Part shown: positions 16,417 to 50,356 of the stretch, one piece after another
Numbering within the stretch: the first letter of the stretch is position 1
Layout of the letters: each line of letters starts with the position of its first letter
Assembly: GCA_037130265.1 (NCBI GenBank)
Contig: JBAXTI010000001.1
Location: 98,092-162,091, forward strand
DNA length: 64,000 nucleotides
Source of the DNA: a bacterium
Lineage (GTDB): Bacteria > Patescibacteriota > Minisyncoccia > Phycocordibacterales > JBBTRF01
Direction of reading: 5' to 3'
Position numbers and translations under genes: made by a program
The notes under the pieces: generated by a model
Told to the model about the DNA's origin: nothing
The model's input: only the letters and a program-made list of their open reading frames with translations
Databases searched by the model: none

Positions 16417-17250
16417 ATGTCTTTAATTAAATCTCCGGCCGATATTTTATTACTCAGAGAAGCGGGGAAGCGCCACGCACGGATTTTACGTGTGGTATCA
16501 GAGATGGTGAAGCCTGGCATTGAGACACGGGCGATCGACGATCGTATTTATATGCTGATTACCAAGGGCGATGCGAAGCTCGGTATTACTGGCGGCGATG
16601 AACCCTCATTGCTCAATTTCCAGCCCGATTTTGCTGATCGACCATTTCCAGCATCGTCTTGTATTTCTGTGAATGAAGAAGTGGTGCATGGCATTCCCAA
16701 CGAAAACAATCGTGTGCTTCAAGTGGGTGACATCGTCAGTATCGACTTTGGTCTGCTGCACAAGGGTGTGTATACCGACGCCGCTGTGACTGTATCTGTG
16801 GTGGGTGAAGGTGTCGGTGTGGATGGTGCTGTGGTCGCTGGTGGTGTCTCGCCTGAGATTCAGAAACTATTATCTGCGACGAAAGAGGCGCTCGTTGCAG
16901 GAATTAAAGCTGCGAAGGGCGGAGCGCGCATTGGCGACATTGGCTATGCCATCGAGCAGGTGTGTAAAAAACACAAACTCGGCTTGGTGGAAGAGTTGTG
17001 TGGTCATGGAGTGGGGAATGCTGCGCACGAGGAGCCGTATGTGCCGAATTTTGGCAAGCGTGGTGACGGTATGCTCCTGAAGCCTGGCATGGTACTCGCG
17101 ATTGAGCCGATGTTTAATCTTGGCACGGCCAATATCGTCCTCATGCCTGACGGCTACACCTTCCGCACCGCCGATATGAAGCCAAGCGCCCATTTTGAGC
17201 ATACGGTACTTATCCGTGAGGGGGATGCGGAGGTTTTGACGGTAGAGTAG
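16417..17250 (+). CDS. map: Methionine aminopeptidase type I (with internal insertion)
   Basis: HGVGNAAHEEPYVPNFG, GMVLAIEPMFNLG metal-ligand motifs. Confidence 0.9.
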   Translation: MSLIKSPADILLLREAGKRHARILRVVSEMVKPGIETRAIDDRIYMLITKGDAKLGITGGDEPSLLNFQPDFADRPFPASSCISVNEEVVHGIPNENNRVLQVGDIVSIDFGLLHKGVYTDAAVTVSVVGEGVGVDGAVVAGGVSPEIQKLLSATKEALVAGIKAAKGGARIGDIGYAIEQVCKKHKLGLVEELCGHGVGNAAHEEPYVPNFGKRGDGMLLKPGMVLAIEPMFNLGTANIVLMPDGYTFRTADMKPSAHFEHTVLIREGDAEVLTVE

Positions 17251-17253
17251 AAA

Positions 17254-17277
17254 AGCCCTTAAAACAAGGGTTTTTTC
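17254..17277 (+). terminator. Rho-independent terminator after map
   Basis: cccttaaaacaaggg hairpin plus tttttt. Confidence 0.7.
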
Positions 17278-17290
17278 GGCCTTCCTGCTA

Positions 17291-17319
17291 TTGACTTTGT
17301 AGACTCATTGTGCTATAAT
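17291..17319 (+). promoter_or_regulatory. Consensus sigma70 promoter (ttgact-17-tataat) driving the first gene of the accessory cassette
   Basis: ttgact 17291-96, exact 17-nt spacer, tataat 17314-19. Confidence 0.7.
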
Positions 17320-17377
17320 ACTCAGCAGGAAAGCACATTGACACAAGCAGACAAAAAAGCGCCTAACAGCGCCGCAT

Positions 17378-18886
17378 TTGCCCGTTTGCCGATTGGCAAT
17401 CCTCTCACGTAGTCCAACAACACAACGGGGATATTCCCCAGAAAGGTTCCTTGTGAACTCGCAGCAAAATAACGGTAGTGGTAACGGCACGGTCACGCAG
17501 GCGGTCGGCACTCAAGTGGTGCAGCCGTATGCTGTTCGGTATATTCTACTCCACATGCTTCCGCACATGGACGAGTGGGCGGCCCTCTGGATCGTCCAAA
17601 AATTCGGTGCGAAGGCTTTGCCGGGCGCCGAAAAAGCCCAAGTGCGCTTCGTCGAGCGGGTTCCGCAGATGAAGGTGGAAAACATCGAAGCGAATGGCTT
17701 CCTTTGTCTTGGCCTCGGCCTGGGTGACGGACGCTGGAGCATCGATGAGCACTGTGTAAATGTGCGGGGGAGCGATCGGCTGCCTAATGAGTGCACTGCG
17801 ACGCTCGCCGCCAAGCGGGTCGGCGAACACGCAGATCTCGCCCTCAAGCGCATACTCGACGAAGTGCTCTGGTGTGACACCCAAAGTGGTGTCCGCTACA
17901 CGCATCTCGCCGAGCTAGTGAAGCTCCTACATCGCTTCCTCAAGGGTAATTCCGCCGAGGTTATGAAATGGTTGTTTCCTGCGCTCGAGGCCATCTACAT
18001 GCAACAGGTCCTCGCCATCGCCGCTCAGACGGATGAGCCGAGCCTGTCGGACTTCTTCACTGACTATGCCAAGAAGGCGGAGGTCACGAATGAGAAGCTT
18101 ATCCAGTCGATCGAGAAGAAGATTGCGGACAGCGTCGAGAACATCGACCGCTCGGTGACAGAGTTGGCCTACGTGGTCCGCTCAATGTATCGCCAAGGTG
18201 TCTCCAAGGAAACGATCTACACGTTCTGCTCCAAGGTCTTCGAGGCCTGGGAGTTCGACCAGGTCGAATTCGATGAGGCGCTTGTTGTGGTGGATGCGTC
18301 GCCTACCTTTGCTGTCACGGTGAAGGGGAGCGAGGAATTCGAGCTCAAAGCGACGGTGGTGAGGGGCGACTCTCTCCATCTCCTGAGGGCAGCGAACTTC
18401 CGCGGCAATCGGTTGGTTGTTATCCAAAACAGCCGGGGCCAGGTGCAGATCTTCGTGAACACCAAGACGCCTGACTTCGTCACCCTCGACACGCTCGTCG
18501 GTATGGTGCGGTTGCTGGAAACAGCGCCCGCAAAGCGCAAGGTGCTCAACTGGCAGGCGATCCGGAAGACAGCAGGAGAGTTTGTTGTGCCGCAGTGGTA
18601 TTACTTCCGAGACGCTCGGCAGCTCTTCAATGGCTCCTCGACCCACCCTGCGGTGACGCCGACGGAAATCCATCTGCCCGCGATCGTGGACGCCTTGAAG
18701 CATGCCTTCCATCCTCGGCTCATTGCCAAGTGGATGCATCGCATCGGTGATCCGCTCAACCTGTTCGGTCGGAAGCCCGAGTCGGATTCGGCTGTGAAGT
18801 CGGCCGCAAGGCTGGTTGCCCAGGTGGTGCAGAGCGACCTCGGGCCTGCCCTCGATGGTGCGCCGCCGGCTGACACCGCGGCCTAG
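17378..18886 (+). CDS. Hypothetical protein, GC-rich (ORF from TTG 17378; more likely start ATG 17555, about 443 aa)
   Basis: Long ORF with protein-like hydrophobic periodicity; GC and codon usage (CGC/CGG/GCG/CCG) differ from neighbours; motifs HMDEW, GLGLGDGRWSIDEH; no family recognised. Confidence 0.6.
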   Translation: MPVCRLAILSRSPTTQRGYSPERFLVNSQQNNGSGNGTVTQAVGTQVVQPYAVRYILLHMLPHMDEWAALWIVQKFGAKALPGAEKAQVRFVERVPQMKVENIEANGFLCLGLGLGDGRWSIDEHCVNVRGSDRLPNECTATLAAKRVGEHADLALKRILDEVLWCDTQSGVRYTHLAELVKLLHRFLKGNSAEVMKWLFPALEAIYMQQVLAIAAQTDEPSLSDFFTDYAKKAEVTNEKLIQSIEKKIADSVENIDRSVTELAYVVRSMYRQGVSKETIYTFCSKVFEAWEFDQVEFDEALVVVDASPTFAVTVKGSEEFELKATVVRGDSLHLLRAANFRGNRLVVIQNSRGQVQIFVNTKTPDFVTLDTLVGMVRLLETAPAKRKVLNWQAIRKTAGEFVVPQWYYFRDARQLFNGSSTHPAVTPTEIHLPAIVDALKHAFHPRLIAKWMHRIGDPLNLFGRKPESDSAVKSAARLVAQVVQSDLGPALDGAPPADTAA

Positions 18887-18944
18887 TCGCCAGTCTGCTT
18901 GTTGAAAATTCGGTAGAGCGTTTCGTACGCTCACACACACGAAG

Positions 18945-18973
18945 CCCAGGTTCAACACCTGGGTTTTCTTTTT
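18945..18973 (+). terminator. Rho-independent terminator
   Basis: cccagg-ttcaaca-cctggg plus ttttcttttt. Confidence 0.7.
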
Positions 18974-19014
18974 GCATTTTCTAAAGCGTATTTTGTTGCT
19001 ACAATAGAAGTACT

Positions 19015-21306
19015 ATGGCAGAACGTCCTAAGGCCCCAGAATCATTGACGACGAAATTTAACGCGGTAAACAACTCAGAACAGCTCTGCGCTGCTTTAGA
19101 CGCGATTCCAGCCACGACAACTTTTTTGATCACCGACGTGCCACGTGGTCAGGATATTGCACCAGGTGACAAGGGGGCGGTTATTAAATTGGTACAGCAA
19201 CTTTTTGAATTTGCCGATGCCTCCACGATGCGTACCGATTCGGATATTACTGGCCGAACTTCTTTCCTCGAACAGTTAATTAAGGAAAGCGTCATCGAAG
19301 ATGGTGAAGAAGCACTCAGTCTCATAAAAGCAATTCAACGAGCGATGCTTAGTGAATTTCCGGAGTATGGAGATGGAGCAGTGTCTGGACAGCCAACTTC
19401 TCCGACCCCAGGCGTACCGCAGCCGACTCCAGGCGAAGTCCTGGTTTTGCCAGCGGCATTTGAATTCAATGATGTGGCAAGGGACGCTCTGGGGGCTTTG
19501 GGTTGGCCAGTAGAAATGATTGATCGATTGACTCCTGAAAAAGCCGAGAAGATATTGAAAGAACAAAAGCCTTATGTTGTTTTGAAAAAGGTGCCGGCAG
19601 CTCCTAAGGTGGCGCCGACTGTTCCACCCCAACCCACTCCAAAAGCACGTCCCTCGGCTCAAAAACCAGCCGCACCTAGTGCGCCAGCCGTTCTACTGAC
19701 ACCGAAAGGTCAGGCAGCTGCTGATCTTTCGAGACTTTTGCCTAAAAAGCCAGAAGTTGTTGTTGCGGCTGCGGCTACATCTGCGACAGGCGCGCCTGCG
19801 GCCCCTGGCATTGAAACTATTGCGACCGTCTTTGACAGCCCGGAATTTCGCGCGTTCATCGCGAAAACACCGAATGCTCAGGAACTTATGTTGAGGCAGG
19901 ACATGGCCGAGATCGGTTTGTATAAAAAAGCTTTTGAAATAAAAGACAAGTTGGCCACTGACCTGTATGTGCTTGCCAACGGCGCAATCAAGGGCGACTT
20001 CCTTCTTGATTTTGAGAACTCCGCTTCGAATCTGCCAAAAAACGGCAAAGCGGAATTTCAGAAGTATGTAGATGCTGAGGCGCTCGAGCGACCAGAACAG
20101 CTGTTGAATCTCGCCACTCAGCTCGAGACACGACAGGTTTTAGAGAAAAATATCGGTACTGCAAAGGCTGAGTTTGAGCGTCTTGGTGGGAAAGATCTCT
20201 TTGATAAGGCAGAACGTGAGGCTGCTGAAATGAAGCAGCACCTTGAGCGCGCTCACGAGAGCACTCGCCGCGACTCGTTGGTGGGATATGTGCCACACGG
20301 TCTGCATCTCGCTTACCTGAGGTTGTCACATTGGGTGTATGAGCGGTGGGCCGGATGGGAGGGGCAGACCGAAGCTACAGTGAAAGCGGATTTTGAACAG
20401 CAGCGAAAGGATTTCTTGATTAAACACCCGGAAGCCACGCTCACGCCATCAGAAAGATCTGATCTAAACAAGATTACTCAGAATGAAATCGTGAAGCTTG
20501 CTGGCCTCAAAGAGCATCAAAAATTAGGGGAGAGAATGGTGGAGGTTTCGGAGTGGGGTGTATCCCGTGAGAAATTGAAGGGGGGCAGCGTTAAGCTCGG
20601 TCTCGGCAGTCTCACTAGCTATAGTCCGTCGTGGTGGACTGCACATCCTGATATTGCCCGTGAGTTAGACGCGGTGAACGGTCGGCTTGCTGATATTCGT
20701 CAGAGGAAGCAGACGATCGAGCAGGCAGAAAAAAATCTTGCGGACATCACTGCAAGCTTTGAGACGATCCGCACTTCGGTATATGCTGAATTGCCACCGA
20801 CTATTGCATTGGTTCGATATGCCCAGGTCCAGATCAAAAATACCCTCACTTCCTTTACGGCGGATACGGCAGTGGAGGATCTGCAGAGAATTTACGATTA
20901 CGCCATCTTCCTCGGCGAGAATCAGCGTCAGAGCTCTGATGTTGGAAAAAATACAGGCAAGAGTGCTTTTGCTCTAATGAATACCGCTGAGGTCCGTGTT
21001 GCTGAGAACAAAATCCATGAAGCCATCGTCGCCCAATGGGGGAGGCAGGTACTCGACGTTTTTGCAAAGACTAATTTGAATAAGAAGGGTGCAGGTGCCG
21101 AAATGGAAAAGACGATCAAGGCACTATTGAAGAAGGAGGCGATCGGACAGTACAGAAATGAGGACGAAAAGATCGCTGTCGTGAAAGCTCTTCTTGTTGA
21201 GGCTTTCAAAAAAATCGATCCGGCTAAGGGCGATGGTCAGGAGCGGCGTTTGGTACTCATGGGTGTGATGATTAATTGCGGTCTGTTGAAGCCAGGTGAA
21301 AAATAA
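19015..21306 (+). CDS. Hypothetical 763-aa protein with Pro/Ala-rich linkers and a long predicted helical/coiled region
   Basis: Extended -10 (TGcTACAAT) upstream; linkers PTSPTPGVPQPTPGE and APKVAPTVPPQPTPKARPSAQKPAAPSAPA; no NTPase or other known motifs. Confidence 0.65.
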   Translation: MAERPKAPESLTTKFNAVNNSEQLCAALDAIPATTTFLITDVPRGQDIAPGDKGAVIKLVQQLFEFADASTMRTDSDITGRTSFLEQLIKESVIEDGEEALSLIKAIQRAMLSEFPEYGDGAVSGQPTSPTPGVPQPTPGEVLVLPAAFEFNDVARDALGALGWPVEMIDRLTPEKAEKILKEQKPYVVLKKVPAAPKVAPTVPPQPTPKARPSAQKPAAPSAPAVLLTPKGQAAADLSRLLPKKPEVVVAAAATSATGAPAAPGIETIATVFDSPEFRAFIAKTPNAQELMLRQDMAEIGLYKKAFEIKDKLATDLYVLANGAIKGDFLLDFENSASNLPKNGKAEFQKYVDAEALERPEQLLNLATQLETRQVLEKNIGTAKAEFERLGGKDLFDKAEREAAEMKQHLERAHESTRRDSLVGYVPHGLHLAYLRLSHWVYERWAGWEGQTEATVKADFEQQRKDFLIKHPEATLTPSERSDLNKITQNEIVKLAGLKEHQKLGERMVEVSEWGVSREKLKGGSVKLGLGSLTSYSPSWWTAHPDIARELDAVNGRLADIRQRKQTIEQAEKNLADITASFETIRTSVYAELPPTIALVRYAQVQIKNTLTSFTADTAVEDLQRIYDYAIFLGENQRQSSDVGKNTGKSAFALMNTAEVRVAENKIHEAIVAQWGRQVLDVFAKTNLNKKGAGAEMEKTIKALLKKEAIGQYRNEDEKIAVVKALLVEAFKKIDPAKGDGQERRLVLMGVMINCGLLKPGEK

Positions 21307-21315
21307 CCACATAAT

Positions 21316-21684
21316 ATGGCACCAAGAAAGAACAATTCAAGCGTCCCGTCAAAGGTTTTTGCGAAGCGTTCCGCTGGTACGGGTCGTGTTGGTGTTGCGA
21401 AAAAAGCCGACTTTTCGAAGCTTTCCGAACTCGTCGAAAAGCGCGACATGGTTGGGGCGCAGGCACTCATCGATGATTTGATGAAAAAGAAGCTCACCGA
21501 GGCTGAAAAGGCGCGGATTCATATGGATATGCTCTCGACCTATCTCGAAGTGTCGAACGAGCTCAACAAGCACTATCTCGCGGAGCTTGAGGATGTGGTG
21601 GCTTTCATGAAAGAGTTGAAAAAGGAGGAAAAGGTGGTCTCTGAGGAGCTTGCTTTGGCAAAGGTGCGTGCGAAGCTTGGCTAG
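21316..21684 (+). CDS. Hypothetical 122-aa alpha-helical protein
   Basis: 10 nt after the previous stop; charged helical composition; no homology recognised. Confidence 0.5.
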   Translation: MAPRKNNSSVPSKVFAKRSAGTGRVGVAKKADFSKLSELVEKRDMVGAQALIDDLMKKKLTEAEKARIHMDMLSTYLEVSNELNKHYLAELEDVVAFMKELKKEEKVVSEELALAKVRAKLG

Positions 21685-21745
21685 AAATGTGGTTGGTGTT
21701 TGCTGAGCGGTTGGTGGCAGGTGAGGCTCGGTATATAATACAGAC

Positions 21746-24502
21746 ATGAATCCCGGTCCTGAAGCGTTGCACACCCCTGAGCAAGAGCTCGCTTTTTTGC
21801 GTGAGCAGGTGTCGCAGAAGGAGCGCGAGCTTCGCGAGCGCGGGGAGGCGCAGCCCCTGCAAGAGCGGGTGATGAAGGAAAAGCTTGTCGAATACCAGGG
21901 GCTTCCGACTGAAAAGGTGCTCGCCCCAGATCATCGTCTCACTCCGGCAGCGTCTGAGGCGATCGTGCTGAATATTGCTCCCGAAGCACATGACGAAAAG
22001 ATGGCGGAGCTCCTCGCTGTCCTTCAAAAGCATGGTTTGAAAAACGCCCTCGATGTCGTTGAAAAGTTGAAAAATCCGCACCTCGAGGACGATTTTCATC
22101 GCTTTGTAATCCAATACATCAAGGCCGGCCATCGCGTTGATCAAATGAATCCAAAAGAAGCGATTTCCAAGGCGTTGAAAATGACATTGTACGAGATCGC
22201 ACTTCCAGAGCGTGACGGTGAAGCGCCAGAAAAGTCGCTCAAGGAGCTCGTGTCTTCGATGGAGCAGTTTTACTCCGGTATGTCTTCCGTCGCCGATGAT
22301 GACGACACTTCTGCGCACTACTTCACTATTGAGCTTGCTGTTTCCAATTATAGTGACGAATTCGTATTTTATATGGCGGTGCCGGATACGAAGCGAGATT
22401 TGTTTGAGAAGCAGATTTTGGGTATTTTTCATAACGCACGCATCACTGAAAAGAATGACGACTACAACATCTTCTCTGAGAAGGGGGTCGTGGCTGGCTC
22501 GGCGATAGGGTTGGACAAGAAGCCAGCACTGCCGATAAAAATGTATGACCAGTTTGATCACGATCCACTCAATGTTATTCTGAACACATTTTCAAAGATC
22601 AAGCGCGACGGCGAGGGCGCGGCACTTCAGATAGTGTGCATGCCGGTAAAAGACGACTTTTATTTGAAGCGATATCGACGAGCCATCGAACGTATCGAGA
22701 AGGGAGTGAAGACAAAAGACGCGATCGACTTTCCTGACACTTTTTTCGACCACTTTAGCCACATTTTCAAGGGTTCAACTGCGCCAAAAAAGCCAAAGGA
22801 AGGCGAAAAATCAGACATCCGTGTGGATGATGCGGCGATTGAGGAGATCAAGCGAAAGCTCGAAAGTCCGACCATGCTCACCAATGTCCGTCTGATGGTG
22901 TCAGCTGATACCGACACCGCGGCAGAGCGTATTTTGAGCGACATGGAGTCGGCGTTCAATCAATTCCAAAACACACAAGGTAATCGCTTCACTTTCGAGC
23001 GCATGAAGAAGGGTAGATTGCAGAAATTTGTCGATGCGTTCGCGTATCGTCTGTATGACGAGGATACGAAATTGGCATTGAGTCTTCGTGAGCTCACTAC
23101 GGTGATGCATTTACCGGCGACCGTCTTGAAATCGGCGCCGCAACTAAAGATTTCTAAGGCAGGTACCGCACCTGCGCCGCTTGATTTGCCGAAGGGAGGT
23201 ATCTTGCTGGGCGTGAATGAATTCCGCAACATGAAGACGGATATCCACATGACTCCGGAAGACCGCCTTCGCCACTTCTATGTTATTGGTCAGACTGGTA
23301 CTGGTAAGACGAGTTTGTTGAAGAATATGATCGTGCAGGATATCAAAAATGGCGACGGTGTCTGCTTCATCGATCCGCATGGCAGCGATATTCAGGATAT
23401 TCTCGCGAAGATTCCGAAGGAGCGCTACGAAGACGTTATCTATTTCGATCCGGCATACACCGAGCGACCGATGGGTTTGAACATGCTCCAGTACGATCCT
23501 CGCTTCCCAGAGCAGAAGACCTTTGTGGTCAATGAAATGCTCTCTATCTTCAACAAGCTCTTCGATATGAAGACGGCGGGTGGTCCGATGTTTGAGCAGT
23601 ATTTTCGTAATGCCGTGCTTTTGACTATCGACGATCCGTCTTCTGGCGGGACGTTGCTCGATGTGTCACGTGTGTTGTCGTCGAAGATTTTCCGCGAGCA
23701 AAAATTGCTGAAATGTACCAATCCAGTAGTGACCCAATTCTGGAGAGAGGTGGCGGAGAAGGCGGGTGGGGAGTCGTCTTTGGCAAATATCGTGCCGTAT
23801 GTGGTGAGCAAGTTTGATACATTTTTGAGTAACGACATCATGCGGCCGGTGATCGCACAGGAGAAGTCGACCTTCAATTTCCGTGAGATCATGGATACCA
23901 AGAAGATTTTGTTGGTGAATTTGTCGAAGGGTCGCTTGGGCGATATCAATGCCAATTTGATCGGCCTTATTTTGGTGGGCAAGATTTTGATGGCCGCTTT
24001 GTCACGCGCGGATTCGCTCAATGGGCAGGCAGGAGCGCCGCAGATGCCGCCATTCTATCTGTATATTGATGAGTTCCAGAATGTGACCACCGATTCGATC
24101 TCGGTTATCCTGTCTGAGGCACGAAAGTACAAGCTCAGTTTGAATATTGCACACCAATTCATCGCGCAGCTCCAAGAGGGGATTAAAAATTCTGTGTTTG
24201 GCAACGTCGGATCGATCGCGGCGTTCCGCGTTGGCGCTGAAGATGCGGAGTATTTGGAGAAGCAGTTTGCGCCGGTATTTACGGCCAAGGACAGCATGAA
24301 TGTCGACAATTATCAGGCATACGTGAAGCTGTTGGCTGGTGGCCGGCCGGTGAAGCCGTTCAGCATGCAACTCGTCGCACCGCAACCCGGCCGGCCGGAT
24401 CAGATAGAAAACCTCAAGCAGCTTTCGTACATGAAATTCGGCCGCAATAAGGCCGATGTCGAAGCCGAGATTTTATTAAAGTATCAGAAAAAGAACGCAT
24501 AA
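21746..24502 (+). CDS. P-loop ATPase of the HerA/FtsK-VirB4/VirD4 (DUF87-type) superfamily with an about 480-aa acidic N-terminal extension and no TM segments
   Basis: Walker A GQTGTGKT, FIDPHG motif, Walker B FYLYIDEFQNV, SLNIAHQ motif. Confidence 0.75.
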   Translation: MNPGPEALHTPEQELAFLREQVSQKERELRERGEAQPLQERVMKEKLVEYQGLPTEKVLAPDHRLTPAASEAIVLNIAPEAHDEKMAELLAVLQKHGLKNALDVVEKLKNPHLEDDFHRFVIQYIKAGHRVDQMNPKEAISKALKMTLYEIALPERDGEAPEKSLKELVSSMEQFYSGMSSVADDDDTSAHYFTIELAVSNYSDEFVFYMAVPDTKRDLFEKQILGIFHNARITEKNDDYNIFSEKGVVAGSAIGLDKKPALPIKMYDQFDHDPLNVILNTFSKIKRDGEGAALQIVCMPVKDDFYLKRYRRAIERIEKGVKTKDAIDFPDTFFDHFSHIFKGSTAPKKPKEGEKSDIRVDDAAIEEIKRKLESPTMLTNVRLMVSADTDTAAERILSDMESAFNQFQNTQGNRFTFERMKKGRLQKFVDAFAYRLYDEDTKLALSLRELTTVMHLPATVLKSAPQLKISKAGTAPAPLDLPKGGILLGVNEFRNMKTDIHMTPEDRLRHFYVIGQTGTGKTSLLKNMIVQDIKNGDGVCFIDPHGSDIQDILAKIPKERYEDVIYFDPAYTERPMGLNMLQYDPRFPEQKTFVVNEMLSIFNKLFDMKTAGGPMFEQYFRNAVLLTIDDPSSGGTLLDVSRVLSSKIFREQKLLKCTNPVVTQFWREVAEKAGGESSLANIVPYVVSKFDTFLSNDIMRPVIAQEKSTFNFREIMDTKKILLVNLSKGRLGDINANLIGLILVGKILMAALSRADSLNGQAGAPQMPPFYLYIDEFQNVTTDSISVILSEARKYKLSLNIAHQFIAQLQEGIKNSVFGNVGSIAAFRVGAEDAEYLEKQFAPVFTAKDSMNVDNYQAYVKLLAGGRPVKPFSMQLVAPQPGRPDQIENLKQLSYMKFGRNKADVEAEILLKYQKKNA

Positions 24503-24538: not shown

Positions 24539-25162
24539 ATGCCACACACCAACATTCAAAAATACAAATACGAACGCACTTTGGTGGTTATCAAGCCTGA
24601 CGGCATCCAACGCGCTCTCATCGGTGAAATCATCCAGCGATATGAACGCACTGGATTGAAAATGACTGGCCTCAAGATGCTCGTCCCAAAGCCGGATTTT
24701 ATCGAGAAACACTACACGCTCGACCCAGAGTGGCGTCGTCTGACGGGGGAGAAGAATATCAAGGGGTACGAGGCGAAGGGGTTGGTCCATCCGCACAAGG
24801 ATGACCCTCTCAAGGTGACTGAGATCATTCTCCAGAAGCTCAAGAAATACCTATCGAGCGGGCCGGTCATCGCGATGGTGTGGCAGGGTGCGCATGCCGT
24901 GCAGATCGTGCGCAAGCTCACTGGTAGCACTGAACCATTGATGTCTGATGTCGGTACGATTCGCGGCGACTTCGTGTTGGATTCGTACAAGATCTCAGAC
25001 GATGACACACGGGCCGTGCGCAACCTCGTCCATTCGTCTGGATCGGTGAAAGAGGCAGAAGACGAAATTGCTCATTGGTTCTCGCAGGACGAAATTATCA
25101 CCTACAAAACGGTGCAGGAACGCATTCTTTACGACGTGAATCTTGACGGCATCCTCGACTAG
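24539..25162 (+). CDS. ndk: Nucleoside diphosphate kinase (with insertions)
   Basis: ERTLVVIKPDG, active-site region NLVHSSGS. Confidence 0.85.
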   Translation: MPHTNIQKYKYERTLVVIKPDGIQRALIGEIIQRYERTGLKMTGLKMLVPKPDFIEKHYTLDPEWRRLTGEKNIKGYEAKGLVHPHKDDPLKVTEIILQKLKKYLSSGPVIAMVWQGAHAVQIVRKLTGSTEPLMSDVGTIRGDFVLDSYKISDDDTRAVRNLVHSSGSVKEAEDEIAHWFSQDEIITYKTVQERILYDVNLDGILD

Positions 25163-25482: not shown

Positions 25483-26136
25483 GTGAAACAACAGGCCCAA
25501 AATGACCCAAAAACCGCTGAAATCAGAGCATCTTTTTGGGCACTTCTGCCACTGGCCATGGGCCTCGTTTTGTTCGTGGTGAACCCATTTTCGCCCTTAG
25601 AAGCCCCGGAAATCAATGTCGATAATGTTTCAGCACTTGGCACCCAAAACCCCGGTACGTTGCCTGTAGACTACTCAGGCATGCCCCTACAGCTCCGGAT
25701 CCAGAGGATCGGCGTGGATGCACCATTTGAGCCGGTCGGCGTGTTGGCAGACGGCAGTATGGGGGTGCCAAAACAGCCTGAGCGAGTGGGGTGGTATGCC
25801 TTCGGTCCAAGACCAGGCGAGCGTGGCAGTGCTGTGGTGGCTGGGCATCGTGGGTGGAAAAATGGCATGGCGGTGTTCGACCGACTGAGCGAGCTCCGCG
25901 CCGGCGATACTATTTTGGTGGCTGATGCGGAAAATGTTTGGCATACGTTTATCGTGCGCGGGAGCAAGGTGTTTGATCCGACACAGGATACTGAAGAGGT
26001 GTTTAGGCGCGCTGGCGTGAGTGGACGAAGTGGAAAAAACGGCGTCTTTCTCAACCTCATCACTTGCGAAGGCGAATGGGATCGCTCAGCCGGACAATTC
26101 ACCAAGCGCCTCGTGGTGTTTGCGGAGGGGATTTAG
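25483..26136 (+). CDS. Sortase family transpeptidase
   Basis: N-terminal TM helix; catalytic His VVAGHRGW, Cys motif LNLITCEGEW (TLxTC), Arg near the C-terminus. Confidence 0.8.
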   Translation: MKQQAQNDPKTAEIRASFWALLPLAMGLVLFVVNPFSPLEAPEINVDNVSALGTQNPGTLPVDYSGMPLQLRIQRIGVDAPFEPVGVLADGSMGVPKQPERVGWYAFGPRPGERGSAVVAGHRGWKNGMAVFDRLSELRAGDTILVADAENVWHTFIVRGSKVFDPTQDTEEVFRRAGVSGRSGKNGVFLNLITCEGEWDRSAGQFTKRLVVFAEGI

Positions 26137-26240
26137 CGCCGCAGACATCATTTCGATTTTATTGAAACTTCATCATTTCTTCATCATTTCTTTATCGGTT
26201 CTTAGCAGTTTCTCTATTGTCATTTTGCTAGACTTTCTGA

Positions 26241-26732
26241 GTGGCTTATCAGAAGGAAAATAACTACGCGTTTATTGATACCCAGAATCTTATTTGTGGA
26301 GTGGAGAGGCTTGGTTGGATGGTGGACTTCGAAAAACTACATCGATACCTTTCTGATAAGTATCGAGTGACGAAGGCCTTCCTTTTTGTCGGATATTTGG
26401 ATAATTTTAAAGACACTTACGCTTTCCTACAAAAAATCGGATACACTTTATGTTTTAAGCCGGTTTCCGGTGGCGATGGTGGTGGTCTGAAGGCTAATAT
26501 CGATGCCGATTTGGTCCTAAAAGCTGTGCTGGAAAAAGACAATTACACAAAGGCCGTGATTATAAGTGGTGACGGAGACTTCTATTCCTTGGTCGAACAT
26601 CTTCGCAAAGAGAGCAAGCTTAAAATGATACTCTGCCCAGATTCCAAAAGATGTTCTATTCTGTTGCGGCGCTCTGCAGGAGGGTTGTTGGAGGGTCTGG
26701 AGAGGGAGAGCCGTGAAATAGGGAGGTTTTAA
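26241..26732 (+). CDS. NYN/LabA-like PIN-domain protein (putative RNase)
   Basis: AFIDTQNL ... IISGDGDF motifs characteristic of NYN domains; GTG start. Confidence 0.7.
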   Translation: MAYQKENNYAFIDTQNLICGVERLGWMVDFEKLHRYLSDKYRVTKAFLFVGYLDNFKDTYAFLQKIGYTLCFKPVSGGDGGGLKANIDADLVLKAVLEKDNYTKAVIISGDGDFYSLVEHLRKESKLKMILCPDSKRCSILLRRSAGGLLEGLERESREIGRF

Positions 26733-30416: not shown

Positions 30417-31408
30417 TTCATGAGGACGCCGAAGTCCTTCTCGCGATTGTCGGAGCCGAGGAGGATGAAGGCGACGCTACGTGAGCTTTTTTGGATGGGG
30501 AGTTGGAACAGGGAAATGAGCGTTTCGCCGGCCTCAGAGGTGAAGCCGGTTTTGCCGCCGAGGAAGCGAGGGTCGTTTGCGAAGAGGTTGATGTTTTGCA
30601 GGTCGCGGTAGGTGGGGGCATCGGTGGCGGAGTAGACGCTGGCGGCCTGGAAGCGATAAGGGTCGGAGCGCTCGGTGTCGAGCATTACCGTTTTCTCGTG
30701 CGTCTTGGTGATGGTGAGAATGTCCGGTGCGAGATCCTTGATACTTTTGGCGAGGAGGAGGAGGTCGTAAGCAGTAGAGCGATTCTGTGCTGAAAGGCCG
30801 GATGGGTCGGCGAAGTATGTGTGGGTCATGTCGAGGAGCGCAGCTTGGCGATTCATTTGGTCGACGAAGTATCCAACATTGCCGAGGCCGTCGTATATGC
30901 CGGCGATTTGGTCGGCTGCGACGTTGCTTGATTCCATGAGGAGCGGATAGAAGAGTTCTTGCACTGGCGATGGTGCGCCGTACTGATGTGCAGTGAGTGC
31001 AGTCACGAGTTTGGTGAGTGAGGCGATGGGAAGAGAGAGGGCGGGTTGGCGACTGATGAGGACTTGGCCAGTGTCGGCGTCGGCGACGAGGAAGGCGGTG
31101 GCGGAAATGTTTTGTGGGCGGGCGATTTTTTGGTCGAGCTTGATTGCTGGTTTTTCGAGCCAGGAGAGCTTGGGTTTGGCGGCGGAGTCGATGACGGATT
31201 GTGGGCCGCCGTTAGTCTTGGCGAGACGTTGACGAATGTTTTTTGTTTCTCGTTCGGTCTGTGCCGTCTGCGCGGCGGATCTCGGCGAGAAATGTGCGTA
31301 GGTGGAGCGGCCGAGGAGAATAGTGATCAATAGGAGGCCGCCCCATTTCAGAGTGAAGGCGAGGCCTTGGGTGTCGAGGGTGCGGGGCGGGGTGTAGAGA
31401 GGGTCCAC
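30392..31408 (-). CDS. D-alanyl-D-alanine carboxypeptidase (peptidase S11, PBP5/6-like)
   Basis: SxxK (IASLTKLV), SxN (MESSNVAAD), KTG (GGKTGFT) motifs; N-terminal signal/TM. Confidence 0.85.
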   Translation of the reverse strand: MDPLYTPPRTLDTQGLAFTLKWGGLLLITILLGRSTYAHFSPRSAAQTAQTERETKNIRQRLAKTNGGPQSVIDSAAKPKLSWLEKPAIKLDQKIARPQNISATAFLVADADTGQVLISRQPALSLPIASLTKLVTALTAHQYGAPSPVQELFYPLLMESSNVAADQIAGIYDGLGNVGYFVDQMNRQAALLDMTHTYFADPSGLSAQNRSTAYDLLLLAKSIKDLAPDILTITKTHEKTVMLDTERSDPYRFQAASVYSATDAPTYRDLQNINLFANDPRFLGGKTGFTSEAGETLISLFQLPIQKSSRSVAFILLGSDNREKDFGVLMKWLELATK

Positions 31409-31491
31409 GGGATAATGATAGCATGGGGAAGAATTTGAAAAATTGATAGAAAGACGTAGTGTTTTTTCTGCGAAGGTTTATAATTGTAGGA

Positions 31492-32322
31492 ATGTCAGAG
31501 CAAATTACCTCAACTGGCCACAATAAGGAGTTCGAGTCGATCAAAGAAATCGACGAAAACGGTATTGAGTTCTGGAGAGCCAGAAATCTATTTTCTTTGC
31601 TTGGGTATGCGACGTGGCAGGCTTTTGATGAGGTTGTTTTACGTGGTGCCAAAGCGGCCCTAAATAGCGGTCAGGTGGTGGAAAACCATTTTAGCCGGTT
31701 GACTAAAATGGTCGAGACAGGGTCTGGTGCTAGGCGAGAAGTTAAGGACTGGAAACTTGATCGCTATGCATGTTATTTGATCGCCCAGAATGGCGACTCA
31801 AAGATTCCGCAGATTGCCTTGGCTCAAACGTATTTTGCTATTCAGACACGAAGGCAGGAAATATTTGATACGTTGTCCGAAGCAGAGAAAAGGCTTTTTA
31901 TCCGCGGGGAGGTGGCTAGTGAAAACAAGAAATTGTTTAAGACCGCAAAGGAAGCGGGAGTTTCTCATTTTGGATTATTTAATGATGCCGGATACAAAGG
32001 TTTGTATGGTGCACCGCTCTCTGTTGTTGAGGCGAAGAAGGGTATTAAGAAAGGAGAATTATTAGATCGTGCTGGTGCGACAGAGCTTGCGGCTAATTTG
32101 TTTCGTATCACACAGACGGATGAAAAGCTGAAGAAGGGTGGTGTGAGGGGCGATGGTCCTGCCCAGAATGCCCATAACATGGTCGGCGGAAAGATTCGTC
32201 AGACGATAAAGGATATTGGTGGGGAATTGCCAGAAAATTTGAAGCCGGAGAAGCATATCAAAGAGGTTGAGAAAGATGTGAAGCAGTTAGGGAAAGGGAA
32301 GAAGCTTTTTGATAATAAATAA
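31492..32322 (+). CDS. dinD: DNA-damage-inducible protein D homolog (Bro-N/KilA-N-like N-terminus)
   Basis: Blocks RYACYLIAQNGD, TYFAIQTRRQE, EKRLFIRGE, GATELAANLFRITQTDEKLKK shared with E. coli DinD; ATG 31492 preceded by aggaa RBS. Confidence 0.8.
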   Translation: MSEQITSTGHNKEFESIKEIDENGIEFWRARNLFSLLGYATWQAFDEVVLRGAKAALNSGQVVENHFSRLTKMVETGSGARREVKDWKLDRYACYLIAQNGDSKIPQIALAQTYFAIQTRRQEIFDTLSEAEKRLFIRGEVASENKKLFKTAKEAGVSHFGLFNDAGYKGLYGAPLSVVEAKKGIKKGELLDRAGATELAANLFRITQTDEKLKKGGVRGDGPAQNAHNMVGGKIRQTIKDIGGELPENLKPEKHIKEVEKDVKQLGKGKKLFDNK

Positions 32323-32488
32323 TTGTACTCGTATGAAGATTCGTTCTAAAAAGCGTGCCATCGGAGCTGTTCTGTGGGCTCAAGCCGAGCCGACTGTACG
32401 AGGTGATTTGCGAGAGCTTGTGAAGTATCTAGCAGAGTAATTTTTTGGGCGGTTGAATGTCTTGAGGATGTGGTGTACTGTGGTGGAT

Positions 32489-32680
32489 ATGAGAAAGTTA
32501 TTGGTGTCGATGCTTCTGGTGGGGAGTTTAATCGGTTCCTTTGCGACGGGTATGGAGGCGAAAGCGAAGGCTTCGAACTATGGGCCGATGGCGCAGTGTC
32601 GAGATGGGACGTATAGCTATAGCATGAATCATCGCGGGACGTGTTCGTGGCATGGAGGGGTGAGGGTGTGGTTTAGGTAA
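32489..32680 (+). CDS. Small secreted DUF3761-like protein
   Basis: Signal peptide then CRDGTYSYSMNHRGTCSWHGGV, the DUF3761 signature (C.DGTYS.S.....GTCS.HGGV). Confidence 0.7.
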   Translation: MRKLLVSMLLVGSLIGSFATGMEAKAKASNYGPMAQCRDGTYSYSMNHRGTCSWHGGVRVWFR

Positions 32681-32687
32681 CAATGCT

Positions 32688-33506
32688 ATGAAGAAATTTC
32701 TTTCAATTTTGGTTTTGGTAGTGCTCGTGACCCCTCAGGTGGCGATGGCAGCTTGGTGGAATCCGTTTAGTTGGAGTGTGTTTCAGAAAAAGGAGGCGAA
32801 TGTGCAACAATTGGAGGTTCGAATCAAGGAGTTGGAAAAGAAGTTGGAGGCCGCTTCGACGACAGAGAAGGTTGTGGTTCCGAAGCCTGTTGTTGTGGAG
32901 AAAAAGAGTGTGAAGAAGGTGGTGCCGGTGGTTGAGGAAGAAGTTGCACCAGTGGTGCCGAAGACGTTTGTTTTGCCGAATGGGAGCGTTGTTGATGTAG
33001 CGGGGAATGTGGTGAGTGCGGCGCCAGTTAAAGACGATAAGACCATCGGTGAGGATTATTTTAATGAGCATAAGACTTGTGCCGGGTTGAGGGACGTTCA
33101 GCCTAATTCGTATTCATTCTGTGTTGATTATGCCCTTAATAAGGTGGACGTACCGGTCAGTAATTCGCAGAGTGTCCAGGGCGACAAGTTTACTGGCGAG
33201 AATTATTTCAAGGAACACAAAACCTGCGCAGGACTGAAAGATGTAAATGCTAACCAACATTCTTTTTGTATCAGTTATGCATTGAATGGTGACAATTCGT
33301 TTGATAGTAAGCAGTCGAGATTAAATGCTATAAATCTTAAGATCGCTAATCTTAATGCGAAATATGCTAAAGATCTTGCTGCCGCAAGAACGCAAGGAAG
33401 TAGTACTGATTATTCCGAAGGACTGATGAGATACATAAGTATTCAGTACAATATTGACTACGCAGCCTTAATGGCTGAATTCCAACAAATTCAATACAGC
33501 AATTAG
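32688..33506 (+). CDS. Secreted protein with two tandem about 45-aa Cys-containing repeats
   Basis: Signal peptide MKKFLSILVLVVLVTPQVAMA; repeats GEDYFNEHKTCAGLRDVQPNSYSFCVDYALN / GENYFKEHKTCAGLKDVNANQHSFCISYALN. Confidence 0.7.
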   Translation: MKKFLSILVLVVLVTPQVAMAAWWNPFSWSVFQKKEANVQQLEVRIKELEKKLEAASTTEKVVVPKPVVVEKKSVKKVVPVVEEEVAPVVPKTFVLPNGSVVDVAGNVVSAAPVKDDKTIGEDYFNEHKTCAGLRDVQPNSYSFCVDYALNKVDVPVSNSQSVQGDKFTGENYFKEHKTCAGLKDVNANQHSFCISYALNGDNSFDSKQSRLNAINLKIANLNAKYAKDLAAARTQGSSTDYSEGLMRYISIQYNIDYAALMAEFQQIQYSN

Positions 33507-33670: not shown

Positions 33671-33677
33671 TTTGTTG

Positions 33678-34069
33678 TGGAGATGGGAGGAATTGAACCC
33701 CCGTGCAGAAGAGTCTAGTGAATGGGTCTACGAAGGGTAGGGCGCTTCTATGTCTGCGGGGCAGACAATTCGCGTGTGCCGTTATGAAACGACCGAAAGG
33801 CGGCTCGCGCTATTCCCATGATCTCGAATCGGCGGCGGGACTCCGCTGATCCTATTCCACAAATATAGCGTCAGGACCGAACGGTGTGGAAACCATCCGG
33901 CTGGCGTCGCTTAGGCTTTAGCGTAAGCGAATGCAAAGTCGTTCGCACTTGCGTACGGAGACTTTACAGATCCAAGTTTTGCACTTAGAATTTTCAGCCT
34001 TTTTAAGAGTTACTGAAGCTCTCCTTCGCACATTCAAGAGATATTCTTCCGTCGATGCCTGGCATCCCC
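33678..34069 (-). ncRNA. ssrA: tmRNA (SsrA), about 392 nt
   Basis: Minus strand 5'-GGGGATGCCAGGCATCGACGG... and 3'-...GGGGGTTCAATTCCTCCCATCTCCAC (tRNA-like T-arm and acceptor); candidate tag ORF ...GCGAACGACTTTGCATTCGCTTACGCTAAAGCCTAA (ANDFAFAYAKA*); smpB immediately upstream. Confidence 0.85.
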
Positions 34070-34149
34070 GTATGAAAATCTGTTTGTGTGGAGCCGACTC
34101 GCATGTACACATCATCTTTTGTGATGTGGGCGCGGCGGCAATGTTGTTG

Positions 34150-34605
34150 TCAACGATCTCGGTACTCTCGGGCGACGTCGCGCGCAGACTGCTTCTTCTT
34201 CATCGATTCTCGCTTGTCGTGCTTCTTTTTGCCTTTCACGACGGCGATTTCTATCTTCAGTTTCCGACCCTTATTATACACCGAAACAGGCACTATTGTC
34301 AAACCCTGTTTCGACTCAATATTGGCCAATTCCTGAAGCTCTTTTTTACTCAGCAAGAGCTTGCGGATGCGAGCCTGATCAAAATCTTTTGGTGCGTTGA
34401 GGGGTTGAAAAGGCGGAATCTCGGTATTCATCAGAAAGGCCTCGCCACCGCGGATGGTGACGTAGCCGCCTTCGAGCTTGCCGAGCTTGGCGCGGACAGA
34501 CTTCACTTCGGTGCCGAGCAGCTCAATACCAGCCTCGTATTTCTCGAGGATTTCATAATCAAGGCCGATTTTTTTGTGCTGCAACAGCGCCATGGGTATC
34601 ATCAT
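34150..34605 (-). CDS. smpB: SsrA-binding protein
   Basis: GTEVKSVRAKLGKLEGGYVTIRGGEAFLMNTEIPPF...RKLLLSKKELQEL...GLTIVPVSVY...KGKKKHDKRE. Confidence 0.92.
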   Translation of the reverse strand: MMIPMALLQHKKIGLDYEILEKYEAGIELLGTEVKSVRAKLGKLEGGYVTIRGGEAFLMNTEIPPFQPLNAPKDFDQARIRKLLLSKKELQELANIESKQGLTIVPVSVYNKGRKLKIEIAVVKGKKKHDKRESMKKKQSARDVAREYRDR

Positions 34606-34732
34606 AGCATGGGGGAATGGGGTGGCCGCGCTTTACTTCGTCTCCAAAATATGGTATTTCTATAGCTAGTCTAGCAGTAGGGAAAAAAGCAATAAAATAA
34701 TAACCAGGAAAAAAGAAAGGGAACCACACTGT

Positions 34733-38292: not shown

Positions 38293-38309
38293 CATTTTTT
38301 CAGACGAGG

Positions 38310-44807: not shown

Positions 44808-44878
44808 CGTGGACATTGGCGATGATAGCATATTTTCCTGCGTTTATGCCAGTCTTTGTCGGACTAGCAGGGGGTATT

Positions 44879-45622: not shown

Positions 45623-45645
45623 GCTATAATTTTACCACCTTCTCA

Positions 45646-47408: not shown

Positions 47409-47412
47409 CACT

Positions 47413-50355: not shown

Positions 50356-50356
50356 G

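Follow-up and report, generated by a model that had tools for sequence, protein, structure and literature searches.

A core T4CP-like ATPase of Paceibacteria and its fast-evolving partners between map and ndk

The T4SS of Patescibacteria is akin to the conjugation systems of monoderms, lacks a relaxase and is encoded near dnaA, where a separate, canonical virB4 is also found (PMC12102498). In the only Patescibacterium amenable to genetics, epibiotic life depends on T4SS genes, and in a Saccharimonadia strain, the sole Patescibacterium with transposon data, they are essential and the T4CP homologue is not (PMC12102498). Patescibacterial genomes carry about two VirD4-like T4CP homologues each, only 148 of 5,713 of which lie near virB4. 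These T4CP-like ATPases are 'orphans' with no assigned role; relaxases are mostly absent, and exaptation has been suggested (PMC12102498).

Here we describe one such orphan, encoded in a 64-kb stretch of DNA (the window, meaning the whole stretch that was analysed). In Paceibacteria, a class of tiny symbiotic bacteria, this ATPase ranks among the most conserved proteins and ends the secY-adk-map block. It has lost the membrane anchor, carries a VirB4-type domain that may serve in docking, and is accompanied in a subset of lineages by a strictly paired, fast-evolving two-gene module. The locus offers testable candidates for the coupling of substrates to a secretion machine in tiny symbionts.

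Layout of the interval between map and ndk

The interval consists of two separate units: a stand-alone gene for a DHH-fold protein, which is its own transcription unit, and an operon that comprises the genes for a 763-aa protein, a 122-aa protein, the ATPase and probably ndk. The features are as follows.

Ending at 17250: map (Pfam Peptidase_M24, 1.4e-42)
17250..17276, + strand: hairpin and U-tract resembling an intrinsic terminator, at the end of map (-11.5 kcal/mol, z -2.4)
17291..17319, + strand: sigma-70-like promoter TTGACT-17-TATAAT with TG, 5' of the DHH-fold gene (11/12 matches)
17453..18886, + strand: 477-aa DHH/DHHA1-fold phosphoesterase-like protein (an alternative TTG start at 17378 gives a 502-aa version)
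18941..18967, + strand: strong intrinsic terminator after the DHH-fold gene (11-bp stem and U-tract; -16.1 kcal/mol, z -4.3)
18997..19005, + strand: candidate extended -10 box TGcTACAAT, read by eye
19015..21306, + strand: 763-aa protein of the c16 family (c16 HMM to residues 208-747, E 1.7e-19)
21316..21684, + strand: 122-aa basic protein of the c24 family, whose members have ~96 aa (c24 HMM, E 1.5e-21; net charge +5)
21746..24502, + strand: 918-aa soluble ATPase of VirB4 architecture with a T4CP-like P-loop motor, Pfam DUF8128
23288..23311, + strand: Walker A, GQTGTGKT, residues 515-522, aligned with the Walker A region of TrwB
24056..24073, + strand: Walker B, YLYIDE, residues 771-776, aligned with the Walker B region of TrwB
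24539..25162, + strand: ndk (Pfam NDK, 5.8e-36)

The ORF list confirms the four frames that an initial annotation of the interval had named (17378-18886, 19015-21306, 21316-21684 and 21746-24502), and most of its transcription signals were recovered. The terminator that it placed after map is present as a hairpin that closes the secY-adk-map unit in this genome. The promoter that it called textbook is the top-scoring site in a scan of the region, and the terminator that it saw behind the first ORF is real by the measure of shuffling, none of 200 shuffles being equally stable. The TGn-extended -10 box is visible 9 nt before the start codon (ATG) for the 763-aa protein, where it would, as a candidate, give a near-leaderless transcript; the promoter scan gave it no score. 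The start of ndk, also as annotated, follows the end of the ATPase gene by 36 bp, and ndk is probably co-transcribed with the ATPase. Directly 3' of ndk, a fold scan found no terminator-like fold. Other neighbours in this genome are adk and the genes for an NYN domain protein and a beta-CASP nuclease.

Architecture, conservation and partners of the ATPase

The ATPase comprises a helical N-terminal region (residues 1-143), an alpha/beta domain like the VirB4 N-domain (~146-455) and a P-loop motor (~480-918). GQTGTGKT, FIDPHG (541-546) and YLYIDEFQ (771-778) are all invariant across 14 homologues. These motifs, together with profile matches and the VirB4-like N-domain, bear out the initial placing of this soluble 918-aa protein, by the same motifs, in the HerA-FtsK / VirB4-VirD4 superfamily. 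Among the T4CP-type profiles of Pfam and NCBIfam only DUF87 passes (24.4 bits, cut-off 23.2); TraG-D_C (21.6 against 22) and TrwB_AAD_bind (18.8 against 20.5) stay below their Pfam cut-offs, and NCBIfam TraD/VirD4 matches fall far below curated cut-offs (SXT_TraD, 53.9 bits against 366). Precomputed Pfam annotation assigns the protein and all 120 listed homologues to PF26449 (DUF8128), itself only a domain of unknown function, of which we found no mention in the literature searched.

The best matches among sequences of solved structure are TrwB and DotL, and the motor agrees with T4CPs (VirD4/TraG/TraD/TrwB) in the placement of Walker A and B. Especially close among known systems are the T4CPs of conjugative elements from monoderms (actinobacteria), such as a protein of an Embleya plasmid (WP_331738717.1; 26% identity, E 2e-57, 707 alignment columns), which passes the Pfam thresholds for T4CPs (T4SS-DNA_transf, TrwB_AAD_bind). 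The Embleya gene has a VirB4-like ATPase gene on one side and the gene of a Replic_Relax relaxase on the other, with PrgI, TrbL-like and NlpC/P60 genes adjoining, and the alignment takes in part of the ATPase region N-terminal to the motor. Whereas the Embleya protein has a transmembrane segment at its residues 34-56, residues 1-730 of the ATPase contain no hydrophobic 19-mer and hence no N-terminal transmembrane anchor; the single hydrophobic peak (734-756) falls in the conserved motor core. The ~143-aa helical N-terminus is likewise extra when compared with T4CPs.

The N-domain tests positive for a VirB4-type N-terminal domain and has the fold of VirB4 in the solved inner-membrane complex of the R388 T4SS. 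With that protein (TrwK of R388; PDB 7o42, 8rtd) the ATPase shares the succession of a soluble alpha/beta domain and a P-loop motor. Pfam and NCBIfam profiles for VirB4 (CagE_TrbE_VirB / TraC / AAA_10) match the ATPase nowhere beyond the Walker A stretch, and hhalign aligns a plasmid VirB4-like ATPase to the motor half only (53% probability). Taken as a whole, the protein is a VirD4/TraG/TraD-like coupling-protein motor in which the membrane anchor is replaced by a soluble helical region and a VirB4-N-domain-like domain.

Full-length homologues are also encoded by phages. The PHROG 5156 profile, with members in SPO1 (gp27.4), phage G (gp156), TP-84 and D6E, matches residues 146-910 at E 5e-82; the phage proteins are ~21% identical over 74-86% of the ATPase. 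They are uncharacterised and have no c16/c24-like neighbours annotated.

The ATPase has more than 1,858 homologues, and relatives occur in at least 478 species-level genomes. Identity to the best 120 of these homologues is 59-89%, with 98-100% of the length covered. Across the 80 best related loci the identity is 54-64% over the full length, with a median (56.9%) close to that of SecY (61.0%) and above those of map (48.9%) and adk (41.6%). The ATPase is a core, vertically inherited gene of Paceibacteria, roughly on a par with SecY in conservation.

The succession secY-adk-map, 0-7 kb, ATPase, 0-4 kb, ndk is kept in about half of the related loci from Paceibacteria: map lies 5' of the ATPase in 27 of the 50 loci with enough sequence, and ndk 3' in 22 of 47. 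The spacing can be very tight, with less than 200 bp between map and the ATPase in 10/32 loci and less than 150 bp between the ATPase and ndk in 15/35; the smallest gaps (-77 bp and -4 bp, respectively) are overlaps. Genomic context tracks the ATPase tree. One derived clade has the gene beside mraZ-rsmH-ftsL-ftsI-murF, and other lineages have it among other housekeeping genes; the contexts include the dcw cluster, RNR, IF-2, RecG, UvrAB and pilus genes. Across Paceibacteria, location between map and ndk is the ancestral state, and of the neighbourhood only the genes that fill the slot between map and the ATPase vary. The initial annotation had contrasted its reading with widespread core genes of known housekeeping function that always adjoin map; the ATPase is widespread and core, follows map in the 27 loci just given, and has no known housekeeping function.

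In addition to the DHH-fold gene, the slot here holds the genes for two of the three proteins in which the initial annotation saw no assignable motif, one of them with Pro-rich linkers. The partner genes are indeed uncharacterised, and the 763-aa protein has no Pfam, NCBIfam or PADLOC match. An HMM of 13 c16 members, built with the 763-aa sequence left out, covers its residues ~208-747. Members of c16 usually have 420-500 aa and share only 13-21% identity with the 763-aa protein, whose residues 1-207 are a lineage-specific extension containing the linkers. Such N-terminal extensions or fusions vary around the conserved core, from +207 aa here to +~800 aa in another locus (L045). The HMM that identified the 122-aa protein as c24 was likewise built without it. 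Beside the ATPase the two families always occur together, in 16 of 16 loci; c24 is directly 3' of c16 in all but one of them, and the pair adjoins the ATPase directly in 13, with one small ORF between in the other 3. The pair adjoins the ATPase in only about 20% of loci. Both c16 and c24 are fast-evolving families that are strictly paired beside the ATPase in a subset of lineages. In other loci, large repeat proteins adjoin c16.

What the ATPase may do

We favour the reading that the ATPase serves the Patescibacterial T4SS as a coupling motor that works without a relaxase and with adaptors or substrates particular to each lineage, and give it a probability of about 0.5. By analogy with its relatives, the ATPase would form a ring. 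It may dock through its VirB4-like N-domain onto the T4SS, with ATP driving the handover of a macromolecular substrate to the channel. The c16/c24 pair would then occupy the slot that a relaxase and an accessory protein take in conjugative elements, and could be a lineage-specific adaptor or a transported substrate; c16 is unrelated to a Replic_Relax relaxase (hhalign probability 0.04%). Arguing for this reading are the core status and ancestral place of the gene, its T4CP identity with the relationship to the Embleya T4CP, the paired partners and the published data on orphan T4CP homologues. Since neither the window nor any of the 80 loci has a T4SS channel gene (virB4, virB6, virB3, virB8) within 10 kb of the ATPase, the link to a T4SS comes from homology only. 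The ATPase is unlike T4CPs in being unlinked to relaxase, VirB4 and channel genes over this range, and unlike conjugative T4CPs in being chromosomal, core and vertically inherited. Counter to the coupling reading, an anchor is missing that canonical T4CPs and the Embleya homologue possess, and phages of Bacillus and Geobacillus, which lack a T4SS, encode homologues over the full length, which indicates that this architecture can work without a channel. The dispensable T4CP homologue of the Saccharimonadia strain (PMC12102498) and the small share of loci with an adjacent c16/c24 pair also count against it. The initial annotation had also considered a transfer module: a T4SS-type link to transfer is now the best reading.

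Alternatively, the ATPase could be a motor that is independent of any T4SS, a soluble ring translocase or helicase-like pump acting on cytoplasmic DNA or RNA, with c16 and c24 as lineage-specific loaders or regulators. Its roles might lie in handling imported nucleic acid for nucleotide salvage or in handling the chromosome at division. We regard this as less likely, yet as a serious alternative. The missing anchor, the lack of nearby T4SS genes and the phage homologues are all consistent with it, and the TP-84 homologue sits 5' of RecB-like, annealing-protein and helicase genes. So are the tight, sometimes overlapping linkage to ndk, the neighbouring genes for adk, the DHH-fold phosphoesterase, the NYN domain protein and the beta-CASP nuclease, and the mraZ-rsmH-ftsL-ftsI-murF context of the derived clade. 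A Patescibacterial T4CP homologue is, moreover, dispensable for T4SS-dependent epibiotic growth (PMC12102498). Against these points, no DNA-binding domain or nucleic-acid-dependent feature came to light in the ATPase, a conjugative T4CP beside VirB4 and a relaxase is its nearest homologue among those whose context can be interpreted, and the N-domain has the fold of a T4SS component. Linkage to adk, ndk and map may be plain inherited gene order. If this alternative is true, the ATPase is an unrecognised core nucleic-acid motor.

A more specific version of the coupling reading makes the DUF8128 ATPase and c16/c24 a relaxase-free delivery branch of the T4SS, in which c16 proteins would be effectors injected into the host and c24 a chaperone or adaptor. 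We consider it quite improbable; if true, the slot between map and the ATPase would be a locus for effectors in the midst of the ribosomal superoperon.

Highly improbable is an anti-phage defence module around a HerA/DUF87-type ATPase with novel effectors (as in Sir2-HerA or MADS), which the initial annotation had raised and which the distribution data largely reject. PADLOC models do match the P-loop half (mad8, 2.9e-12; HerA and DndH, 7.5e-6 to 1.3e-4), the ATPase is flanked by variable genes that evolve fast, and a nuclease-fold gene lies upstream. However, the matches are limited to the generic P-loop region that the superfamily has in common, those to HerA being confined to ~50 residues about Walker A (NCBIfam helicase_HerA, 11.8 bits; cut-off 970), and the N-domain is VirB4-like. 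PADLOC models match none of the three neighbours. MADS operons have eight genes, and here mad8 is the only mad-type match; neither NurA nor Sir2 partners the ATPase, and in PADLOC and the neighbourhoods of the 80 loci no defence or mobility gene accompanies it. The SecY-like conservation of a near-universal, vertically inherited core gene runs contrary to the pattern typical of defence systems, which are patchy and move horizontally.

The weakest reading, in which infA...rplQ gave way to a mobile transfer cassette of 7.2 kb that was acquired recently, is scarcely tenable, and we reject it for the ATPase, which is not an accessory gene inserted into the most conserved locus, as the initial annotation had proposed, but a core gene in its ancestral place. 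It is true that a motif scan finds none of infA...rplQ in the window, that the slot ranges from 0 to 7 kb between genomes, and that the first gene has its own promoter and terminator and is a compositional outlier (GC 0.59; GC3 0.75 against 0.46-0.67 in 11 other measured genes). The composition of the other three genes, however, matches their flanks. In the 80 loci, the 10 kb around the ATPase contain no rpoA or rplQ motifs and only isolated single-motif matches to infA, rpsM and rpsK; because no infA...rplQ cluster occurs there, the break that follows map belongs to the clade as a whole and not to a cassette. An uninterrupted map-infA...rplQ order with the ATPase absent was seen in 0/80 loci. 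The short distances from map to the ATPase also speak against insertion, as does the persistence of the entire four-gene order in close relatives even though their partner proteins are now only 49-59% identical. Repeat boundaries and a tRNA target are absent, as are integrase and relaxase genes; in none of the loci does the ATPase have an integrase, relaxase, VirB4 or phage gene nearby, and its orthologue was not found in 2.9 million viral contigs. The operon is neither a mobile nor a defence island.

The DHH-fold protein

The first ORF of the interval is GC-rich, as initially annotated, but most likely encodes 477 aa from the ATG at 17453 and not 502 aa; this start is backed both by the genes called on this contig and by the N-terminal MNSQ that homologues conserve. 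The protein tests positive for the two-domain DHH + DHHA1 fold, which it shares with phosphoesterases such as PggH, NrnA, RecJ and PAP phosphatase, and is probably a metal-dependent nuclease or phosphoesterase, or a nanoRNase-type enzyme. Conserved in the family are H34, H38, D40, E41, D98-E99-H100, D142 (99%) and N393-G394-S395; this His/Asp/Glu cluster and the N-G-S occupy the places of DHH motifs I/III and GGGH. Compared with DHH enzymes the motifs are variant (H-x3-H-x-D-E; D-E-H), and the 477-aa protein carries a ~130-residue helical insertion. Pfam DHH, DHHA1 and UPF0160 match none of the family members tested (20 for DHH and DHHA1); one homologue (P0130) has canonical PDFD (PDxD) and DHH. 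We take the H-x-D-E motif to be reminiscent of MYG1/UPF0160. The only named member comes from a Patescibacteria group MAG. As a side result, a DHH-fold family of about 1,350 representative clusters that appears uncharacterised is thus brought to notice.

Genes and signals between map and ndk

The four genes downstream of map are not equivalent: they comprise a separate DHH-fold gene, a lineage-variable partner pair and a conserved core ATPase. All of the ORFs, signals and motifs named in the initial annotation were found in the sequence. They are arranged as follows (locus tags in the source MAG, WCO79_00635 to 00650).

17250 (+), 3' end of map
17250-17276 (+), hairpin and U-tract after map, -11.5 kcal/mol, z -2.4
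17291-17319 (+), near-consensus promoter TTGACT-17-TATAAT with TG, 11/12 matches
17453-18886 (+), GC-rich first ORF, probably 477 aa, from the ATG at 17453
18941-18967 (+), strong terminator, -16.1 kcal/mol, z -4.3
19015-21306 (+), 763-aa ORF
21316-21684 (+), 122-aa ORF, 9 bp after the 763-aa ORF
21746-24502 (+), 918-aa ATPase, 61 bp after the 122-aa ORF
ndk (+), 36 bp beyond the ATPase

The first ORF is present and GC-rich as annotated, but its length is most likely 477 aa rather than 502 aa, because the existing gene call of the contig uses the ATG at 17453 and the resulting MNSQ N-terminus is common to homologues. Relatives with a 763-aa homologue at 49-59% identity preserve the whole order map-477aa-763aa-122aa-ATPase-ndk-sortase, and the nearest named relatives among the matches listed are Taylorbacteria and other Paceibacteria. 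Transcription of ndk probably occurs together with that of the ATPase. Two candidate -10 elements lie very close to start codons: a TGcTACAAT box (18997-19005, in the region 18997-19017) that ends 9 nt before the ATG of the 763-aa gene, and TTGGTG-17-TATAAT (21711-21748), whose -10 ends 6 nt before that of the ATPase. Both would yield near-leaderless transcripts, and the second may be an internal promoter for ATPase-ndk.

Distribution and ancestry of the ATPase

The initial annotation proposed an inserted accessory transfer or defence cassette. Comparison of gene neighbourhoods across relatives does not support this view, as the ATPase is a conserved core gene in an ancestral position. There are more than 1,858 homologues, the best 120 of which share 59-89% identity over 98-100% of their length and all belong to Pfam DUF8128, a family that no paper we found names. 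A scan in which each species was represented by one genome found relatives in at least 478 genomes. Across the 80 best related loci, a set that leaves out the low end of the range, the ATPase shares a median 56.9% identity with the window protein, alongside 61.0% for SecY, 48.9% for map, 41.6% for adk and 52.9% for the beta-CASP nuclease.

The order secY-adk-map-ATPase-ndk-(DUF2238)-beta-CASP recurs widely, followed by rplT/rpmI/infC on the opposite strand. The ATPase has map upstream in 27 of the 50 loci that extend 8 kb or more in that direction, and ndk downstream in 22 of the 47 that extend 5 kb or more on the other side. The map-ATPase gap ranges from -77 to 7,022 bp (4,495 bp in the window) and the ATPase-ndk gap from -4 to 3,862 bp; the three genes abut in several genomes (loci L029, L040, L041, L065, L068 and L082). 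In a neighbour-joining tree, ATPase clades match genomic context. One derived clade lies among mraZ-rsmH-ftsL-ftsI-murF, rmuC, a GatB/YqeY-domain gene, rplU, recR and dnaB (names read from the sequences), and the other contexts are also housekeeping (RNR, IF-2, RecG, UvrA, UvrB, PilB, PilM and transporters). None of the loci showed an integrase, relaxase, VirB4 or phage gene, and a scan of 2.9 million viral contigs returned no close relative. The genes had been said to occupy the place of infA...rplQ; neither the window nor any of the 80 loci has an rpoA or rplQ motif, or a cluster of infA...rplQ motifs, after map, and thus the break in gene order after map pre-dates this lineage.

One MAG (CALRBL01) carries two DUF8128 ATPases, at L019 and L032, with 60% and 56% identity to the window protein. 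They fall in different tree clades; either the two are genuine paralogues or the bin is mixed. A second variable slot beside the ATPase, between ndk and the beta-CASP nuclease, holds sortase and NYN-domain genes (25483-26732). The pair also occurs in one close relative (L085), and another (L086) has the sortase only; in most other Paceibacteria loci the slot holds the DUF2238 gene.

The initial assignment of the ATPase to the HerA-FtsK / VirB4-VirD4 superfamily was correct. Its C-terminal half matches Pfam DUF87, TraG-D_C and TrwB_AAD_bind at or slightly below thresholds, and NCBIfam TraD/VirD4 models far below their cut-offs. Only two solved structures could be reached by sequence, TrwB (E 0.003) and DotL (E 0.04), both of them coupling proteins. 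Residues 1-475 modelled alone gave a pLDDT of 82 and a pTM of 0.71, and the top 13 Foldseek matches to this model were all TrwK chains, each with probability 1.00. From the model and these matches, the N-terminal half consists of a helical region of ~143 residues followed by a VirB4-N-domain-like alpha/beta domain. An hhalign comparison with VirB4 aligned only the motor half, so the relationship of the N-domains is one of fold. The protein is soluble, with no transmembrane segment.

Within the helical region, P79, E80, H82, D83, H112, D116 and R119 are invariant in 56 homologues (residues ~79-119, window 21980-22120). This polar cluster looks like a putative metal- or ligand-binding site; the region has no counterpart in the fold matches, and neither an HD domain nor any other fold was matched to it.

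Remote full-length relatives occur in phages and on plasmids. Those of Bacillus and Geobacillus phages (PHROG 5156, E 5e-82) include SPO1 gp27.4, phage G gp156 and a TP-84 protein; these uncharacterized relatives are kept in SPO1-like myoviruses, phage G and thermophilic Geobacillus siphoviruses. The neighbourhoods of the TP-84 (L087:5740-8004) and SP8 (L088:4980-7700) homologues consist of hypothetical proteins throughout and offer no functional clue. Plasmid-borne relatives are found in actinobacteria, clostridia, bacilli and haloarchaea. The best plasmid match, an Embleya protein (26% identity, E 2e-57, 707 alignment columns), exceeds the Pfam thresholds for type IV coupling proteins (T4CPs) and has one N-terminal transmembrane segment, which the window ATPase lacks. 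Its gene lies in a textbook monoderm conjugation cluster, after those for a TrbL-like protein, PrgI and a VirB4-like ATPase and before those for a Replic_Relax relaxase and an NlpC/P60 hydrolase. Given the motor matches, the VirB4-like fold of the N-domain and the homology to the Embleya T4CP, the window ATPase belongs to a T4CP lineage with a VirB4-like N-domain; it no longer has the anchor, and its gene is now chromosomal and part of the core. This agrees with what has been published on Patescibacteria, whose type IV secretion system (T4SS) derives from the monoderm conjugation type, lies near dnaA and lacks relaxases, and whose genomes each encode ~2 T4CP homologues, distant from virB4 and with no assigned role (PMC12102498).

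The partner pair and the 477-aa gene

Clustering of the ORFs of all loci, followed by profile searches, placed the 763-aa and 122-aa proteins in two families that we call c16 and c24. Residues 208-747 of the former correspond to c16, usually 420-500 aa long (E 1.7e-19 when the window protein was left out of the HMM), and the latter belongs to c24, of ~96 aa (E 1.5e-21). Six-frame searches of all loci found both families in the identical 16 loci and nowhere else. The c24 gene is immediately 3' of c16 except in L045, and the pair sits directly 5' or 3' of the ATPase gene, with nothing in between in 13 loci and a single small ORF in the other 3. In ~80% of the genomes the ATPase does not have the pair beside it. 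The two families are thus a strictly coupled pair, not described before. They evolve very fast: c16 members share 13-21% identity with the window protein and just three invariant residues (F, F, G), c24 has none, and the ATPases beside them are 55-62% identical. N-terminal additions to c16 are frequent, as in the window (+207 aa with Pro-rich linkers) and in a 1,217-aa fusion in L045.

Searches of Pfam, NCBIfam, PADLOC and PHROG with the 763-aa and 122-aa proteins gave only two weak matches, to PHROG entries with no assigned function. A relaxase identity for c16 was ruled out: hhalign against the Embleya Replic_Relax protein gave a probability of 0.04%, and neither Tyr nor His is invariant at any position of c16. 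Word-indexed searches, which do not measure breadth, returned 6 close relatives of the 763-aa protein and 10 of the 477-aa protein. In one clade, proteins of 700-1,755 aa with internal repeats of ~110-130 aa, which bear no relation to the extra N-terminal region of the window's 763-aa protein, are encoded directly upstream of c16:

L018:5373-8195, repeat protein
L021:2408-4510, repeat protein
L024:5170-7632, repeat protein
L025:5652-8186, repeat protein
L047:1092-6359, repeat protein
L045:4971-8624, repeat protein fused to c16

The 477-aa gene has its own promoter and terminator, and comparison of composition identified it as an outlier (GC3 0.75). Among the other loci it occurs only in L021, L024, L025 and partly L045, on the opposite strand. 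All five loci with the gene also hold c16/c24 and represent just two clades; a functional connection with the ATPase module is therefore possible but unproven. Searching 1.84 billion representatives with a profile recovered 1,352 clusters, with a sole named member, from a Patescibacteria group MAG, and no Pfam domain in the members tested. Among 149 representatives H34, H38, D40, E41, D98-E99-H100, D142 (99%) and N393-G394-S395 are conserved, and a divergent member has canonical PDxD and DHH motifs; no sequence link to solved DHH enzymes was found. The protein is probably an active enzyme, a putative metal-dependent phosphoesterase or nuclease.

Possible functions, and other features of the window

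We favour, with a probability of about 0.5, a T4CP-like ATPase coupled to a T4SS, with c16/c24 as adaptor or substrate. Its parts differ in strength: classification of the ATPase as T4CP-like with VirB4 architecture is very likely right, and its coupling to a T4SS is a tentative proposal. The ATPase would assemble as a ring and use ATP to handle a macromolecule, and its VirB4-like N-domain may dock it on the T4SS; in the solved R388 inner-membrane complex, VirB4 is accompanied by VirB3, VirB6, VirB8 and VirB10 (structure entry descriptions). The c16/c24 pair would fill the genomic slot of relaxase and accessory protein. What is new here is a T4CP that lacks the anchor, has a VirB4-like N-domain and holds a fixed place where the secY-adk-map block ends, together with its partner pair.

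The main rival, a nucleic-acid motor that acts independently of any T4SS, is rather unlikely. Arguing for it are the missing membrane anchor, the existence of phage homologues, a neighbourhood of nucleotide-metabolism genes without channel genes, and a published Patescibacterial case in which a T4CP homologue was reported to be dispensable. A defence module is poorly supported and highly improbable, and a recent mobile insertion, equally poorly supported, is the least probable of all; MADS (the mad8 system) is an eight-gene operon, and the literature found on it gives no mad8 domain details.

The window also contains a type IV pilus cluster (45568-56579):

45568-46734, PilM
48199-49926, PilB-type ATPase
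50357-51424, PilT-like ATPase
51457-52659, PilC
55491-56579, protein with an N-terminal methylation motif

In ~6 related loci (L015, L039, L074, L006, L012 and L042) type IV pilus genes are found no more than 10 kb from the ATPase, a proximity compatible with chance in genomes of 0.5-1 Mb.

ARAGORN called two tRNA-Ser genes (44441-44530 and 44720-44808, -), one with the odd anticodon ACT; at the Rfam gathering threshold only the first was reported (44444-44530), and the GCT one was not. A tRNA-Ile with anticodon TAT (UAU), rare in bacteria, lies at 38220-38293 and would read AUA without lysidine modification. Positions 31001-33000 show very strong GC skew (0.35-0.42, against ~0.0-0.2 elsewhere) and encode a Bro-N domain protein (31459-32322) as well as a small ORF that contains Cys and looks secreted. 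A tmRNA (33675-34069, -; 87 bits) is followed on its strand by an ORF (34150-34605, -) to whose product the contig's gene calls assign Pfam SmpB, and the two are overlapped by a long spurious ORF on the + strand (33931-34665).
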